Below are positions 17,358 to 24,697 of a stretch of DNA of 64,000 bases, piece by piece (the first letter of the stretch is position 1; each line of letters opens with the position of its first letter). The translations under genes were made by a program, and so were the position numbers. This DNA is from Eledone cirrhosa. Its lineage: Eukaryota. The stretch lies in the NCBI GenBank assembly GCA_964016885.1, contig OZ024743.1, positions 289,416,001 through 289,480,000 on the forward strand. Reading direction: 5' to 3'. Under the pieces are notes generated by a model, which did no database searches, had not been told where the DNA came from, and worked only from the letters and a program-made list of their open reading frames with translations.

Positions 17358-17822
17358 CAGTTAGAAACACTCACAAACAGACACACATATACATACATAT
17401 ATACATACATACATACATACATCCGTACATACGTACATATATACATATATATATATACATATATTAATTGTATTTATTTGGGCGAAACAGTGAGACTTGT
17501 TACTCTGGAGTTTCGCCTGTTTCAACAGCAGACACAGTTTAAATAACGGAAGACTCGAGGTGGGGGAGGGGATTTAATTGATAAGGGTTAATTAAGATAA
17601 GGAATACATGGTGGTGATGGCAGTAGGAGAGCATAGACTGTGAGGAAAAAGAAGGTGAAAATGAGTGATAGTGGACATAGCCATAGAATTGTATCTGGTC
17701 AGTAGGGGGCAGGTGATGAATGTAAAGGTGGTTATATATAGAGGTTAGTGAAAACTATATATATATAAATTAATAAAAACAATGAATAAAAACAAAGAAA
17801 CAGTTCCTTATATTAAAAATTC

Positions 17823-17954
17823 ATCATTTTACGATCGTTTCTAGGATGTATATGTGCGTGTTGGTATGTATATCATAGATCTATGTAAACATTTTACAAA
17901 CTATCAGAGGAAATATACATACCTACACATATATATGCTGTCTTCAGAAATAAT
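17823..17954 (-). ncRNA. Type I HHR with ~99-nt stem II
   Basis: AUUAUUU CUGAAGA [uauaugug..gguauguauau / auauacauacc..cacauaua] GAAA CGAUCG UA AAAUGAU. Confidence 0.7.
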
Positions 17955-18300
17955 TGATTCTACTTTAAGCACAAGGCCAACAATTACCCAGTGCATTACT
18001 GGTACTTTATTTTATCGACCCCGTAAGGATGAAAGGCAAGGTCAACCTCGGCGGGATTTGAACTCAGATCGTAAAGGGACGTAACTATGCTGGAAAGCCA
18101 ATCCACCAAGAAATAATTGTTTCTACTTTAGGCACAAGGCCAGCAATTACCCAGTGTATTACTGGTACTTTATTTTATCGACCCCGTAAGGATGAAAGGC
18201 AAAGTTAACCTCGGCGGGATTTGAACTCAGAATGGCAAGGGCTGTAACTCTATGCGTCAAAGCATGGCGTCCGACCCTCTACCGATACTGCCAATCCACC
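17955..18300 (-). mobile_element. Two tandem SINEs (major family), target agaaataat triplicated
   Basis: Reverse complement of the family consensus; agaaataat at ~17946, ~18109 and ~18302. Confidence 0.88.
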
Positions 18301-19201
18301 AAGAAATAATGATATTTGTTTATTGAAAAAAAACAACAAAGATTTAATATAATAGGTCTGTTTGGGAACAGGTTTTGAATTGACCAATAGAAAAGTAGTA
18401 AGTGGTCAAGTTGATAGAATAGTAGTAGTAGAAATTTAATTTAGGGGTAGAGGAATGCAGACTTATGTTTTGAATGGAAAGAATACTTTGAATGAAAAGA
18501 TTACTTTGGGGATGAAAAGAGGTCAAGCCAGTGAAAGGTACACGAATATTTGATTTTATTAAAGAATAATGCTACTGTTAAAATCGAAGGAGAATAACAT
18601 TTTAGGGTAAATGTGTTAGTGAGAAATACCAATCTTATTTAAAACACAAGGAATTTAGATCTATAACAAGAAATTAAATTAATTTAATTGATATGTATAC
18701 TTATAGGGATAAATTTATATTAATTCATATAGATGTGATAAATAAGAGTTAGATGTTATTAAAGAATGTTGTTAAAAACGAAGGAAAACATTTTTTGGGA
18801 TAAATGTATTAGTGAGAAATAACAAACTTATATAGACTACAAAGAATTTATATTCATAACAGGAAATTAAAATAGTTTATATGTATACTTATAGGTATTG
18901 AAACAAAATGAAAACGAAATTTCATTTCTCACTCTTAGTATGGCACTTACTTAAATGTAAGTATGCATGTATACGTACATACATATATGTATACAGACGT
19001 ACAGTAGCATGCACATATATATATATATATACATATATATATACATATGCATACAGGTACACATACATATATGCACGTATCAGTTTAGCGGCGCTTATTA
19101 TAACGTCGCTTTGTTCGTTTGTAAACAAACTGAACAGCCTGAATTTATGCCATACGGTGTTAAGGCAACCACGTCACCTTTTTGTTCAACACTGACACAG
19201 G

Positions 19202-19246
19202 AACGATGTACTAGTTTCAAGCTTGTTAGCTATCATCAGCACCGTT
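19202..19246 (-). ncRNA. Minimal type I HHR, copy 1
   Basis: AACGGUG CUGAUGA u AGCU-aaca-AGCU u GAAA CUAG UA CAUCGUU. Confidence 0.88.
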
Positions 19247-19677
19247 TACCCATCTGCCAGATAGTTGAACGTTCGAAAGTATATACTTTCCTTATGAAAA
19301 TTAACGGCTGAGCAGCCTAATTTGCATATTGAGTGAGTTAAATCGGTCAGGCATACCGAACACGATAAATTGAAACAAAATGAAAACGAAATTTCATTTC
19401 TCACTCTTAGTATGGCACTTACTTAAATGTAAGTATGCATGTATACGTACATACATATATGTATACAGACGTACAGTAGCATGCACATATATATATATAT
19501 ATATATACATATATATATACATATGCATACAGGTACACATACATATATACACGTATCAGTTTAGCGGCGCTTATTATAACGTCGCTTTGTTCGTTTGTAA
19601 ACAAACTGAACAGCCTGAATTTATGCCATACGGTGTTAAGGCAACCACGTCACCTTTTTGTTCAACACTGACACAGG

Positions 19678-19722
19678 AACGATGTACTAGTTTCAAGCTT
19701 GTTAGCTATCATCAGCACCGTT
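19678..19722 (-). ncRNA. Minimal type I HHR, copy 2
   Basis: Same sequence as copy 1. Confidence 0.88.
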
Positions 19723-20165
19723 TACCCATCTGCCAGATAGTTGAACGTTCGAAAGTATGTACTTTCCTTATGAAAATTAACGGCTGAGCAGCCTAATTTG
19801 CATATTGAGTGAGTTAAATCGGTCAGGCATACCGAAAACGATAAATTGAAACAAAATGAAAACGAAATTTCATTTCTCACTCTTAGTATGGCACTTACTT
19901 AAATGTAAGTATGCATGTATACGTACATACATATATGTATACAGACGTACAGTAGCATGCACATATATATATATATATATACATATATATATACATATAT
20001 ATATACATATGCATACAGGTACACATACATATATGCATTCAATTTATCGTTTTCGGTATGCCTGACCGATTTAACTCACTCAATATGCAAATTAGGCTGC
20101 TTAGCCGTTAATTTTCATAAGGAAAGTATATACTTTCGAACGTTCAACTATCTGGCAGATGGGTA

Positions 20166-20210
20166 AACGGTGCTGATGATAGCTAACAAGCTTGAAACTA
20201 GTACATCGTT
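20166..20210 (+). ncRNA. Minimal type I HHR, copy 3 (inverted segment)
   Basis: Same sequence; predicted GUA cleavage after 20203. Confidence 0.88.
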
Positions 20211-20598
20211 CCTATGTCAGTGTTGAACAAAAAGGTGACGTGGTTGCCTTAACACCGTATGGCATAAATTCAGGCTGTTCAGTTTGTTTACAAACGAACA
20301 AAGCGACGTTATAATAGGCGCCGCTAAACTGATACGTGCATATATGTATGTGTACCTGTATGCATATGTATATATATATGTATATATATATATATATGTG
20401 CATGCTACTGTACGTCTGTATACATATATGTATGTACGTATACATGCATACTTACCTTATAGGTATTAATTTTAGGAAAAGAGAGCTGTAAAAGGGAAAT
20501 AAAATTATGAAGTTCTCAGTAGTAAAATACTAATTATAGGTTAACTAAATTAAAAGAACTAATTATAATAATTTGTAAAGTATAAGAGTAATTATATA

Positions 20599-21030
20599 TT
20601 AATTAGGTTTATAATATTTGAAAGTTCTTCTAATTCTATGATTGCACGATATAATTAATTCTAGTCGCTTATTTAATAGGATATCCTTAGATTTCATTAT
20701 TTCAAAAAGTTCTTGGGAACATAATCTACACTCATATCTGTTATTTTGATAAGGGGTGGCCCTTTTGATCACACTCCAGGTAGGGTTATAATCGATATTC
20801 TTTTTTCTATAATTATTAATTATTTCAGCTAAGGATGTTGTATTAGCTAATGCGGCATTTTTTAAAATATGTTTGTGGATATTAAATCTTACTTTAAATT
20901 GGTTAGAAGTAGTTCCTATATATGAATAAGTGAGTCCTTAGTGCTAATTTTACATTTATATACTATGTTATTAATAAGGCAATTTCCTTTTAATGGGCTA
21001 TTCCCTTTGTTTCTACAGTTACAACCATTC
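20599..21030 (-). pseudogene. PLE GIY-YIG endonuclease domain (frameshifted)
   Basis: CNCRNKGNSPLKGNCLINNIVYKCKI../YSYIGTTSNQFKVRFNIHK..WSVIKRATPY..CRLCSQELFEI..LLNKRLELIISCNH. Confidence 0.88.
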
Positions 21031-21253
21031 GTGAATATTAGGAGTGTTAATCAAATTTTGTGTGGAATTTACTCGACTTGTTATATGTGAAGGAGATGGT
21101 GGTTTGTTGCGGTTTATTTCAGTATTATGGTTAGTTTGATGCGTTGGTGGTATATTCATGGTTTTTTTACATTTAAATGCATTGTGGGCACTTATATTTT
21201 GTTGTATATTTATATATATATATTGTGATTTATATATATATTATGATTTATCT

Positions 21254-21315
<62 letters not shown>

Positions 21316-21683
21316 CAAAAAAGGTGTGGTAATATACCAGGTGGATCATTAGGCGCCACAGTACCCAATACTTAGGGTAGTAGAGTGTATAATAGGAAAA
21401 GAGTCAGGACTCGACGGCTGAGCTCCGGCCGTTTCGACAGGTAGACCCGAACCAGCTGTCGAAACGTCGGAGATCAGCCGTCGGGGTCCTGACTCTTTAT
21501 ATATATATAAAGGTAGAACAATGGAAGATAATATCCGTAGTGTTAGAGCACTCAGTCCATGGGACGAGTTTGGTAGAAGTGGTAACACAACAGTTAGTTC
21601 ACCATACCGAGAACAATTGTTTCACCTTATGCATGCGGATCTTCAGCTCGGACTGGTAATGATTCCGTATAACCATTACCAGT

Positions 21684-21724
21684 CCGAGCTGAAGATCTGC
21701 ATAGGGTGAAACAATTGTTCTCGG
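21684..21724 (+). ncRNA. Minimal type I HHR (mirror copy 21607-21651 on minus)
   Basis: CCGAG CUGAAGA ..stem II.. GAAA CAAUUG UU CUCGG; arms 21577-21661 / 21674-21754. Confidence 0.85.
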
Positions 21725-21751
21725 TATGGTGAACTAACTGTTGTGTTACTA

Positions 21752-21795
<44 letters not shown>

Positions 21796-22053
21796 ATATT
21801 AACAAATAGAAACTATATTTATAAAACTATATTTATTTTATTATACATATTTCAAGGGCCACCAAGGCAACTTATGGTGCGCTTTCATCAGATAAAATAC
21901 AATACAGATTAGTTTTATAAATAAATATTGACATACCCTGAAAAAAGACAACCTTAGCGGTTGGAGCTTCCTGACTGTCTAGGAAGCTCCAACCGTTAAG
22001 GTTGTCTTTTTTCAGGGTATGTCAATATTTATTTATAAAACTAATCTGTATTG

Positions 22054-22119
22054 TATTTTATCTGATGAAAGCGCACCATAATTTCCCTTGGTGGCCCTTG
22101 AAATATGTATAATAAAATA
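22054..22119 (+). ncRNA. Type I HHR (mirror copy 21834-21899 on minus)
   Basis: UAUUUUAU CUGAUGA AAG-c-GCACCA..UGGUG..CUU GAAA UAUGUA UA AUAAAAUA, within a palindrome with ~185-bp arms centred on 21973-21980. Confidence 0.8.
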
Positions 22120-22761
22120 AATATGGTTTTATAAATATAGTTTCCATTTGTTAATATATTGTATATTTACTCCACTAGTTTGTTGAGTGCTTTATATCAG
22201 TTATAAATATTTTTAAGCTTGTTGAATCCCAACAAATTAAATATAACCTCTGCATATATATATATATATATGAATATAAAATATACGATGGGCGAGTGGG
22301 GGTATGGGTACTGTGGTGGGGGAGGGGTAGTGACGGTGACGGCGGTATCGTTGGTGTAGTGCGAATGAATAAAGACTATAAAGTGATGTAGTTTAAAAAT
22401 TAAAGATTCAATTACGATGAAGATTATGGGAGCATAAAATTATAGAAGCTGTGATGGGTGAATGAGTGAGTGATCGCAGGGTCGTATTGGGGTTAAGTAA
22501 ATCGGTGAAATATATAAGATATATGAATATAACTTATTGAGGTATAAAGGAATTAACTACAATGAAGGTTATGGAAATATTATAGATTTATATATGATGA
22601 TGATAGTTGTGGTGTCGCTGTGGTGTGGCTGTTAGGCTTATATAAGATATAAGGTATGGGGAATAAAGGAAGTAAAGAACAATGAAAAACCTGAAAAATA
22701 GAGAATAAATAAAAAATGGAAAAAATAAAAATTTGAAAAGTTGGAAAGATAATTGTTTCAA

Positions 22762-22930
22762 CTTTTGGCGCAAGACCAGCAATTATCCCAGTGTATTACT
22801 GGTACTTTATTTTATCGACCCCGTAAGGATGAAAGGCAAAGCTAACCTCGGCTGGATTTGAACTCAGACCGTAAAGGGCCGTAACTCTATGCTGCAAAGC
22901 AGGGCGTACAACCCTCTACTGATACTGCCG
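22762..22930 (-). mobile_element. SINE (major family)
   Basis: Consensus match. Confidence 0.85.
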
Positions 22931-23324: not shown

Positions 23325-23374
23325 TCTTGGCAGATGACCTTGTGATAAATAGGCGAAATTCTAGAGTTTCAAGA
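23325..23374 (+). ncRNA. Decayed type I HHR (U4>A)
   Basis: UCUUGG CAGAUGA CCU..AGG c GAAA UUCUAGAG UU UCAAGA; a core-deleted relative lies at ~17470-17540 on minus. Confidence 0.6.
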
Positions 23375-23456
23375 CTCACTATTTAGCCTTAATAAAATGA
23401 ATGTTAACACTCTACTTCGATACTGAGCAATATTTTCTCACAGCCGTCAACCACAT

Positions 23457-23489
<33 letters not shown>

Positions 23490-24337
23490 CGAGATGTGTC
23501 AGAAACGTTCCAGGACTGATGTCACAAAAGATTTATTTCAAACCCAAACTTCACATATAAGGGGGTTTTCTCCTTCAAAGTAATCCCCCTGGAGTCTAAT
23601 GCACTTTTCCATCCTTTTCTGCCACGCTTGCATGCACTCCTGGAAGGATTCTTCCGGGATCCTCCACAGTTCCGTCGTCACGGCCTTTTTTGTACTTGAA
23701 GATCCACGACTCATCACCGGTAATGACTGTCCCTAGCAGTCTGGTTTGGTTTCAAAACGCTCGAGGATGTCCTGGCACACTTGCATGTGTGGACCCTTCT
23801 GGTCATCGTTCAGCAGTTTTGGCACCATCTTCGCGCAGACTTTCCGCATGTCCAAATCTTCAGTGAGAATCTTCCAAAAGCTGTCCCGATTCATGCCCAG
23901 CTCATTTGCGATCAGTCGAACAGTCAGCCGACGATCCCTGACGCGCTCAACGTTGACATCAGTCCTGGTTGTTGAAGGCCTTCCGCTCCTGGGGTAATTT
24001 TGCACGCCCTCGCGTCCTTCTTTAAACCTCTTGCACCACTCAAAAACACGTGAGCGTGACATCGTCTCATCTCCATACACTTGCTGCAGCGGAGTTTTCC
24101 CCAACCGTAACAGAAACTTAAAGTTTGTTCGTTGCTCTGTGCTCATTGCTTGACGACCTGAAACAGAGGACATGTATATAAAATTATGAAGAAAAAAGTT
24201 TGATCGCTGCAGAGAGCTAAGATTACAGTTACATACTCCAGGGGAATTACTTTGAAGGAGAAAACTCTTAGTGTGAAGTTTGGGTTTGAAATAAATCTTT
24301 TGTGACATCAGTCCTGGAATGTTTCTGACACACCTCG
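23490..24337 (-). mobile_element. Internally deleted mariner transposon with ~105-bp TIRs in TA
   Basis: TIRs cgagatgtgtcagaaac.. / ..gtttctgacacacctcg; transposase HTH (EQRTNFKF..VFEWCKRFKEGR..RSGRP..RKVCAKMVPK), ITGDESW and C-terminal GDYFEG. Confidence 0.93.
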
Positions 24338-24697
24338 TATATATATATATTTTATATATATATTATATATATATATTATATATATATATCACATAAGAAA
24401 CGGAGAATAAGTGGTGCAACGAATAAGATTTATTAGACTTATTACAAACGTTTTTCTGGCGACCAGCTCGAGGCACGATCGATGCAGTGATCAAACCTGA
24501 CTCTGAAATCGCAAGATCCTCGGATATGTCTCGTTTCTACGATTGTAATATGTCTAATAAATCTTATTCGTCGCACCACCGATTCTCTGTTTCTTATGTG
24601 ATATTATACTCTGCTCTGTCAGAGCATCGAGTGCTCAAACGGCATACTGCTTACGGACGCTTTAAGCATCCCACACCAATTATATATATATATATAT

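Follow-up and report, generated by a model that had tools for sequence, protein, structure and literature searches.

The insert at 18900-20455 of the window is 1556 bp long and very probably represents a footprint of Penelope-type double priming. The window is the whole stretch of 64,000 nt that was analysed (Eledone cirrhosa, assembly GCA_964016885.1, contig OZ024743.1, positions 289,416,001 to 289,480,000). On balance, it appears that a single RNA, probably a ligated circle of one unit, was copied by the reverse transcriptase (RT) and endonuclease of a Penelope-like element (PLE), with both broken strands of the target serving as primers.

Structure of the insertion and of its target site

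The insert is flanked on both sides by a 12-bp target site duplication (TSD), CTTATAGGTATT, delimited by sequence, repeat finders and script (Table 1). The minus arm, read 20037->18900, consists of full units of 476 and 472 nt followed by 193 nt. Its 3' end lies at unit position ~473-476 and its 5' truncation falls inside the TA-rich hairpin; the last 3 nt of the left TSD copy also fit the unit, a microhomology at end B. The two arms meet at 20037/20038 without microhomology; most family members have 1-6 nt at this junction. The ~59-nt tail is found on just one of the insertion's two ends and is predicted to fold into two hairpins, and the TA-rich segment differs in length between units. The unit has a GC content of ~0.33 and only short microsatellite-driven frames. 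The arrays run unit after unit, with no LTR/PBS/PPT layout. An Rfam scan of the window gave nothing at the gathering threshold.

Unit coordinates (U1-476) are given in ribozyme sense, the reference unit U being the reverse complement of 19369-19844. Landmarks of U: core, U130; predicted cut, after U160; site A, ~U416-421; site B, ~U476-U4.

Table 1. Features of the insertion and its target. Positions refer to the window.
Feature	Position	Strand	Basis or remark
Interrupted target: older coding Penelope-like element (3' part)	18311..21200	-	ORFs, paralogues
TSD, left copy	18888..18899		single copy at paralogous empty sites
Tail, ~59-nt interval between start sites A and B	18897..18956	-	family ends, folding
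B arm, 2.4 units, 3' end at fixed site B	18900..20037	-	script, end comparison
TA-rich self-complementary segment, long predicted hairpin	18963..19075	-	repeat finder, folding
Hammerhead 1 (minimal type I), cleavage predicted after 19209	19203..19245	-	core starts 19239
Reference unit U, 476 nt	19369..19844	-	U1 = 19844; basis of all family coordinates
Hammerhead 2 (minimal type I), cleavage predicted after 19685	19679..19721	-	core starts 19715
Head-to-head junction of both 5'-truncated arms	20037..20038		sequence, arm comparison
A arm, 418 nt, U471 to fixed site A (~U416)	20038..20455	+	script, arm comparison
Hammerhead 3 (minimal type I), cleavage predicted after 20203	20167..20209	+	core starts 20173
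TSD, right copy	20456..20467		single copy at paralogous empty sites

The initial annotation had described a 1556-bp insert with a 12-bp TSD, non-coding units of 472-476 nt and one inversion, and this anatomy was reproduced with its coordinates. It had also assigned to each unit one minimal type I hammerhead with the palindromic stem III ACUAGU; the three cores were located, and the cleavage that it predicted after 20203 agrees, as a prediction, with the core at 20173 on the plus strand. Its reading of the two outer ends was revised. The left end, taken for a breakpoint specific to this locus, is the fixed end B of the family. At the right end, the likeness of gcatactta to gtatactta, which it had noted, did not serve as a simple priming overlap, because the whole TSD comes after the element end (...CATACTTAC); this end lies inside the normal range of A ends in the family.

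The host PLE retains the C-terminus of its endonuclease (20599-20937) and its 3' non-coding region. It is unrelated to the retrozyme, and no sequence similarity of the unit to it was found. We take it to be Penelope-like partly from its motifs; the Atlas hits of a relative were also used. Both flanks are contiguous, with one copy of the site, in 17 of the 19 host paralogues in which the junction anchor was found. The 12-bp TSD is therefore real, the paralogues serving as empty sites. The target is AT-rich and not a microsatellite, an exception to the TA-rich flanks of the family.

Several other elements lie near the insertion. A second minimal hammerhead family forms a head-to-head pair ending in (TA)n at 21574-21757 (cores at 21646, minus, and 21689, plus), with a palindromic stem III and U.U at the base of stem II. 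A third hammerhead family forms an inverted insertion at 21790-22260, with a short left end and a longer right end, both in (TA)n; judged by eye it obeys the same rule of one short and one long end, and it also occurs near the host PLE copies L158, L159 and L161. A short inverted fragment of another TA-ended repeat family is present at 21405-21500; this family is also joined head to head with the retrozyme in L038 and L059. A transposon remnant with inverted ends in (TA)n lies at 23480-24340 (209-aa frame at 23733-24362, minus) and is presumably Tc1/mariner-like. A tRNA-like SINE, which we take to be of the octopus SINE type, occurs in tandem and single copies at 17946-18310, 1984-2356 and 22760-22930. 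Two motifs that resemble hammerheads but have altered cores, each with a palindromic stem III, lie at 17480-17530 (minus) and 23325-23390 (plus) and are probably the ends of further PLE families.

Family size and sample

The 37-nt ribozyme pattern, with at most one mismatch, has 12,940 matches in the genome, and a degenerate pattern of the ribozyme core has at least 24,427 exact matches, mostly in (TA)n; the reversed controls gave 0. With the 12-bp TSD, these matches (12,940 and at least 24,427) correspond to the dispersed copies with a TSD of >4 bp that are characteristic of retrozymes. TSD length is unreadable in pure (TA)n targets.

The sampled loci, <2% of copies, comprise four parts: (1) loci L031-L080, behind the first 100 listed of the 12,940 matches; (2) 40 loci behind the 100 matches listed first, out of 474, to the pattern of the window subfamily, three clusters being omitted; (3) the 10 best DNA hits; (4) 50 loci of older subfamilies. 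The 10 best DNA hits and the window are excluded from the end counts because the query selected a break at U9. In L084-L090, 5' ends seemed to accumulate at U9, an artefact of this first query that was discarded.

Fixed ends of the arms

The 3' ends of the arms lie at two sites, A (~U416-421) and B (~U476-U4), ~59 nt apart and nearly always followed by (TA)n. The A and B intervals make up 8.4% of the unit, yet in the 90 loci sampled without bias they contain 140 of the 158 3' ends of arms. The B interval was widened from U470 to U462 after the ungapped extension of an older subfamily stopped early; gapped alignments reach B. Head-to-head pairs number 51, of which 39 are classifiable (12 have a broken or unclear end), and 37 of these 39 have one A and one B end (p 1.4e-9). 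In older subfamilies, 13 pairs are A+B and one is A+A among 24 (one locus counted twice). The inverted 5'-truncated copy placed head to head, with the tail at one end only, is a feature of PLEs and is found here in 37/39 and 13/14 pairs. Flanks are TA-rich in 36 of 45 inverted insertions.

The inner ends of the arms are distributed uniformly and without a peak (scan p 0.5-0.75). Near site B, 5' ends were slightly over-represented, but this failed the scan test and was rejected. The median arm length is 372 nt for A arms and 477 nt for B arms. Since most B arms far exceed the 59 nt to site A, B cDNAs overlap the A-copied region on the template.

In the model presented in PMC3846280, head-to-head copies are attributed to an antisense template that primes itself. 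In this family the A+B rule and the random inner ends instead favour priming from the two target strands. The target-primed insertion from both strands that the initial annotation had proposed is supported by 37/39 pairs and by the TSD with its empty site. A PLE enzyme, proposed at the same time, is also probable: the one-sided tail, the fixed ends and the TA-rich targets fit a PLE footprint.

Hammerhead ribozyme

The ribozyme has the features of a minimal type I hammerhead: the core CUGANGA...GAAA...UH, stems I and II and a short stem III, the palindrome ACUAGU (predicted duplex, -4.8 kcal/mol). Stem II is closed by U.U, invariant across three subfamily groups, in place of the usual G10.1-C11.1. 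Excerpts of PMC4209133 describe a conserved G-C closing stem II and minimal PLE hammerheads that cut poorly in vitro, even as dimers; in those of 10.64898/2026.07.22.740005, 8 of 9 Xenopus dimers did not cut.

Conservation was counted at 26 positions, taken from the core, stems II and III, the U.U pair and the cut. Between the window unit and a subfamily differing from it at 71 of 339 columns (21%), none of the 26 is changed, vs 67/296 outside (p 0.002); for the intermediate subfamily group the counts are 0/26 and 40/315 (p 0.03). Within the ribozyme, only N7, loop II and a single pair of stem I (G.U, A-U or U.G) differ. Low core substitution within young copies was not accepted as evidence of conservation, the loci having been picked by that motif. 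Folded as a circle, the unit is far more stable than shuffles (z -8.7; z -5.0 without the TA hairpin), and the MFE structure of the monomer lacks stem III. In one unit of L086 (4644-5093), an 18-nt deletion takes out the ribozyme GAAA, stem III and the cut site.

At least two cores are crossed by 21 of 74 arms. No inner end lies at the cut site (U155-167, within 6 nt), 0/74 vs 2.0 expected, a difference that is weak by itself. The junction at the cut site is precise, with one indel opening in 269 units. Read-through of ribozyme sites by an RT, as the initial annotation had it, is borne out by the arms that cross cores and by the lack of 5' ends at the cut site. A conserved cutter that is always read through intact would most simply correspond to a junction that was cut and religated.

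Haplotypes and growth of the arrays

At 25 diagnostic columns the two arms agree completely in 16 of 19 insertions; among 422 cross-locus pairs, 8.8% do so. Only 12 of 1703 unit cells differ from the majority of their own insertion, six of them in one locus with two insertions. Among 44 insertions of three or more units, 24 majority haplotypes are found. Units of one insertion never belong to mixed subfamilies. Differences within an insertion are mostly single-unit; a variant is shared by only some of the units in 5 of 53 insertions (three or more units). The shared haplotypes and the mostly single-unit differences indicate that arrays are mostly born homogeneous and that the lineage often passes through a one-unit bottleneck.

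Some arrays were modified at the DNA level. L165-L170 (G000:C1:49584024-49588766) contain ten alternating units of 422 and 420 nt of an older subfamily, forming a two-unit higher-order repeat; a rolled two-unit circle was considered and rejected, since the inverted arm is mostly ancestral and the repeat therefore grew at the DNA level after insertion. L191 has undergone a later DNA-level duplication. L090, considered as an 11-unit insertion of a single haplotype, is weak evidence, being part of a palindrome that includes >600 bp of inverted flank; the palindrome extends across the whole locus (L090:2400-8725) and both of its arms end at B. No parent unit for the private haplotypes of L077 and L090 was found elsewhere in the assembly; a source that was edited or lost would account for these sourceless haplotypes, and duplication at the DNA level would do so equally well.

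Editing-like variants

Rare variants fixed across the covering units of an insertion are enriched in A>G (RNA sense): 12/37, vs 31/305 for single-unit variants (p 0.0006). The test was performed after a lead; the count omits five loci with mixed insertions. The A follows U in 10/12 fixed vs 14/31 single-unit A>G variants (p 0.025; mirror class, 2/6). ADAR enzymes prefer a 5' U. A fixed A>G variant is present on both arms in 7/12 cases; for example, L032 has three, and one is found in all six covering units of L075. The strand test among fixed variants, 12 A>G vs 6 T>C, is not significant (p 0.12), and G>A is also common among them (8). The A>G-rich fixed variants after U resemble RNA editing; selection on RNA structure could shape the spectrum. 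A monomer at the RNA level is favoured over late DNA duplication because the fixed variants differ from post-insertion DNA mutation.

Alternative templates and modes of priming

The circular RNA template of the initial annotation does not follow from the window locus, whose units carry the majority haplotype of their subfamily (mean divergence 0.5%) plus single-unit changes. It draws indirect, family-wide support from the conservation of the ribozyme, the lack of 5' ends at the cut site, the single haplotype per insertion and the editing-like A>G variants. A covalent circle of one unit is, from this evidence, a probable template.

It is unlikely that the same A/B double priming took place on a linear, uncut, multi-unit template, with arrays lengthened and homogenised by early DNA-level duplication and the hammerhead kept for protein binding or for release of the RNA from read-through transcripts. 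Excerpts of PMC11167929 report that an anole PLE needed no cleavage and that uncut RNA was its main template in vitro. DNA-level amplification is visible in some arrays, and in L080 both arms carry a two-unit motif, the pattern expected from a mixed multimer template. Such a template should, however, leave partial sharing of variants, which is absent from 48/53 insertions of three or more units; many haplotypes are fixed over both arms, the A>G-rich spectrum of the fixed variants differs from that of post-insertion mutations, and 5' ends do not pile up at any transcript start. Linear copying by itself only shortens arrays.

A circle in function only is distinctly improbable: an RT on a linear RNA, either one unit long after ribozyme cutting or terminally redundant, would jump precisely from the 5' end to the 3' end. 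The monomer bottleneck, the editing-like scars and the conservation of the ribozyme would be explained equally well, and a bacterial defence RT reportedly makes repeated precise template jumps on linear RNA. Jumps should nevertheless fail or add bases at times, which neither the 5' ends (0/74) nor the cut-site junctions (one indel in 269 units) reflect, and subfamilies are unmixed within any insertion.

Twin priming in the manner of L1, in which a second primer would invade one contiguous 3.3-unit template at a random internal position, is very improbable. L1 twin priming also uses primers from both target strands and also leaves an inverted 5' part between TSDs. The second start of L1 is random and upstream of the first, whereas that of the retrozyme is fixed and downstream of the first, its arms overlap on the template (median B arm, 477 nt) and there is no poly(A) tail. 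Twin priming predicts that the inner end of one arm abuts the outer end of the other on the template. The insert in the window appears to conform, since its plus arm starts at U471 and its left end is only 5 nt away, at U476, and an enzyme at A could stall at a second primer; yet the left end is the fixed site B, and the two ends lie 5 nt apart by chance. Among 37 clean inverted pairs, 4 are contiguous to within 10 nt (3.2 expected) and 6 to within 15 nt (4.7 expected); the unfiltered set gives 4 of 51 pairs (4.4 expected). With contiguity at chance level, the insert is assigned to Penelope-type double priming and not to L1 twin priming. Two claims of the initial annotation are accordingly given up: that undoing the inversion restores one contiguous ~3.3-mer, and that the breakpoint geometry is a signature of twin priming; outer ends are fixed family-wide and inner ends are uniform.

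Coding elements and chimaeric junctions

Had the unit always been the pseudo-LTR (pLTR) of a coding PLE, as the initial annotation had considered, an ORF sharing it would be expected; none was found in 151 fetched loci (101 + 50; <2% of copies). No ORF with RT and GIY-YIG between pLTRs, the mark of an autonomous PLE, was found in the insert or in these loci. The search for a partner in 20 loci with a single ribozyme or widely spaced ribozymes and at the 5' junctions of 60 solo arms gave no coding element with the unit, and comparison of the unit with nine long-ORF host PLE loci gave no similarity.

Several TA-targeting coding PLE families neighbour retrozyme copies. Two young coding families have (TA)n targets and two 3' ends, ~90 and ~75 nt apart (L033:871-3370, L034:600-2860 and L039; L059, L152, L159 and L085). 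One of the young families has a hammerhead-like motif with the core CAGAAGA in place of CUGANGA. The PLE protein of L033 groups with RT, GIY-YIG and HTH_animal clusters in Atlas; Pfam and PDB searches with the PLE proteins gave nothing. The young coding families are candidate sources of the mobilising enzyme, with no sequence likeness to the unit. The young coding families are presumably 'Neptune-like', a label that we base on motifs. A passage of PMC8557442 also lies behind it.

Six of 40 solo arms are fused 5' to 5' with a TA-ended arm of another family (L038, L059, L077, L117, L127, L144), with no (TA)n between the arms. By eye, L077 joins two long ends and L117 two short ends, two cases that run against the A+B rule. 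These fusions may be two-template events or insertions with deletion. Two further solo arms of the 40 (L044:4276-5150; L150 from 4962) are fused 5' to same-strand PLE endonuclease sequence, possibly by a template switch to the RNA of a coding PLE.

That the unit is a pLTR, its copies being the 5'-truncated ends of a coding PLE, is hardly credible: Xenopus retrozymes match PLE pLTRs (10.64898/2026.07.22.740005, as excerpted), and the L044 and L150 fusions might be so read, but these two lie at different unit positions, in different PLE families and mid-ORF, the arms in 101 + 50 loci pass from one unit to the next and in no case reach a shared ORF, and the unit is unlike the nine long-ORF host PLEs (sample, <2% of copies).

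Comparison with known elements

The element is, by the features that can be tested from sequence alone, a non-LTR retrozyme or non-autonomous PLE of a described kind: it consists of tandem non-coding units with a type I hammerhead and a GC content <50%, and the retrozyme-like tandem unit of the initial annotation is retained. Metazoan non-LTR retrozymes (PMC7229834; 10.64898/2026.07.22.740005; excerpts) are alike in their non-coding low-GC tandem units with a type I hammerhead each, thousands of dispersed copies and TSDs of >4 bp, and mobilisation by a PLE and a circular template have been proposed for them. They differ in their canonical hammerheads, shown to give circles; the hammerhead here is of the minimal PLE type with U.U in stem II. 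In the excerpted accounts, insertion ends, the two arms and fixed starts are not analysed. Circles from other retrozymes are reported in PMC7229834, and a circle as template was already proposed in PMC4209133 and PMC7229834.

EN+ PLEs (PMC3846280; PMC8557442; excerpts), including non-autonomous Chlamys elements such as MRC1, share the head-to-head inverted 5'-truncated copy, the tail at one end, (TA)n targets, palindromes at some junctions, TSDs of 8-12 bp and non-autonomous arrays, head to tail according to PMC8557442. Their tail is 30-40 nt long; that of the retrozyme is ~59 nt, and the retrozyme has no ORF and arms of up to 15 units. Earlier papers already contain the inverted arms, the tail on one side, the (TA)n targets, the head-to-tail arrays of non-autonomous elements and the hypothesis of a circle.

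In Poseidon PAc of Anolis (PMC11167929, excerpts), too, the RT starts internally at two neighbouring sites, between which the tail lies; both strands of AT-rich target DNA are nicked and extended in vitro, the protein is a predicted dimer, and a protein-assisted hammerhead lies upstream of the starts. PAc differs in being autonomous, in needing no cleavage and in showing no difference in start site between strands. The retrozyme, unlike PAc, has strictly one A and one B end, and a conserved ribozyme in a non-coding unit. No description of the family or count of A+B ends was found in the literature searched, subscription papers and preprint supplements aside.

Proposed mechanism

A tandem array would be transcribed. 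Adjacent minimal hammerheads would pair via their palindromic stem III and cut, perhaps with the help of a protein, as conservation and the literature suggest, and the one-unit RNA would be ligated into a circle. A PLE enzyme supplied in trans, a predicted dimer, would nick both strands of a TA-rich target; the targets themselves are observed. One nick would start synthesis at A and the other at B, on either flank of the tail hairpins, in keeping with the fixed ends and the one-A-one-B rule. Each cDNA would then run a variable distance; the arms extend over ribozyme junctions. The cDNA ends would be joined head to head, the joints usually having 1-6 nt of microhomology, and a TSD is left, as in the window. 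A more specific picture is put forward tentatively: a dimeric PLE enzyme holding a single pair of hairpins on an A-to-I-edited ligated 476-nt circle, with two RTs setting out around it from the two target strands, one on each side of the tail.

Significance

The insertion route of tandem and inverted PLE copies, and retrozyme circles as templates, are open questions in the excerpted parts of PMC8557442, PMC7229834 and PMC11167929. The family bears on them as a test of mechanism and not as a new class; the element is a genomic parasite. Being young and having thousands of copies, it yields rules that can be counted: A+B ends, uniform inner ends, a single haplotype per insertion and fixed editing-like variants. 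It also supplies a defined 476-nt substrate with known start sites. If true, the geometry of a dimer on an edited circle would by itself account for the tail of PLEs, for their inverted pLTR and for the tandemly arrayed retrozymes of animals. Edits fixed throughout the units of both arms would then document, in the genome, reverse transcription around a rolling circle.
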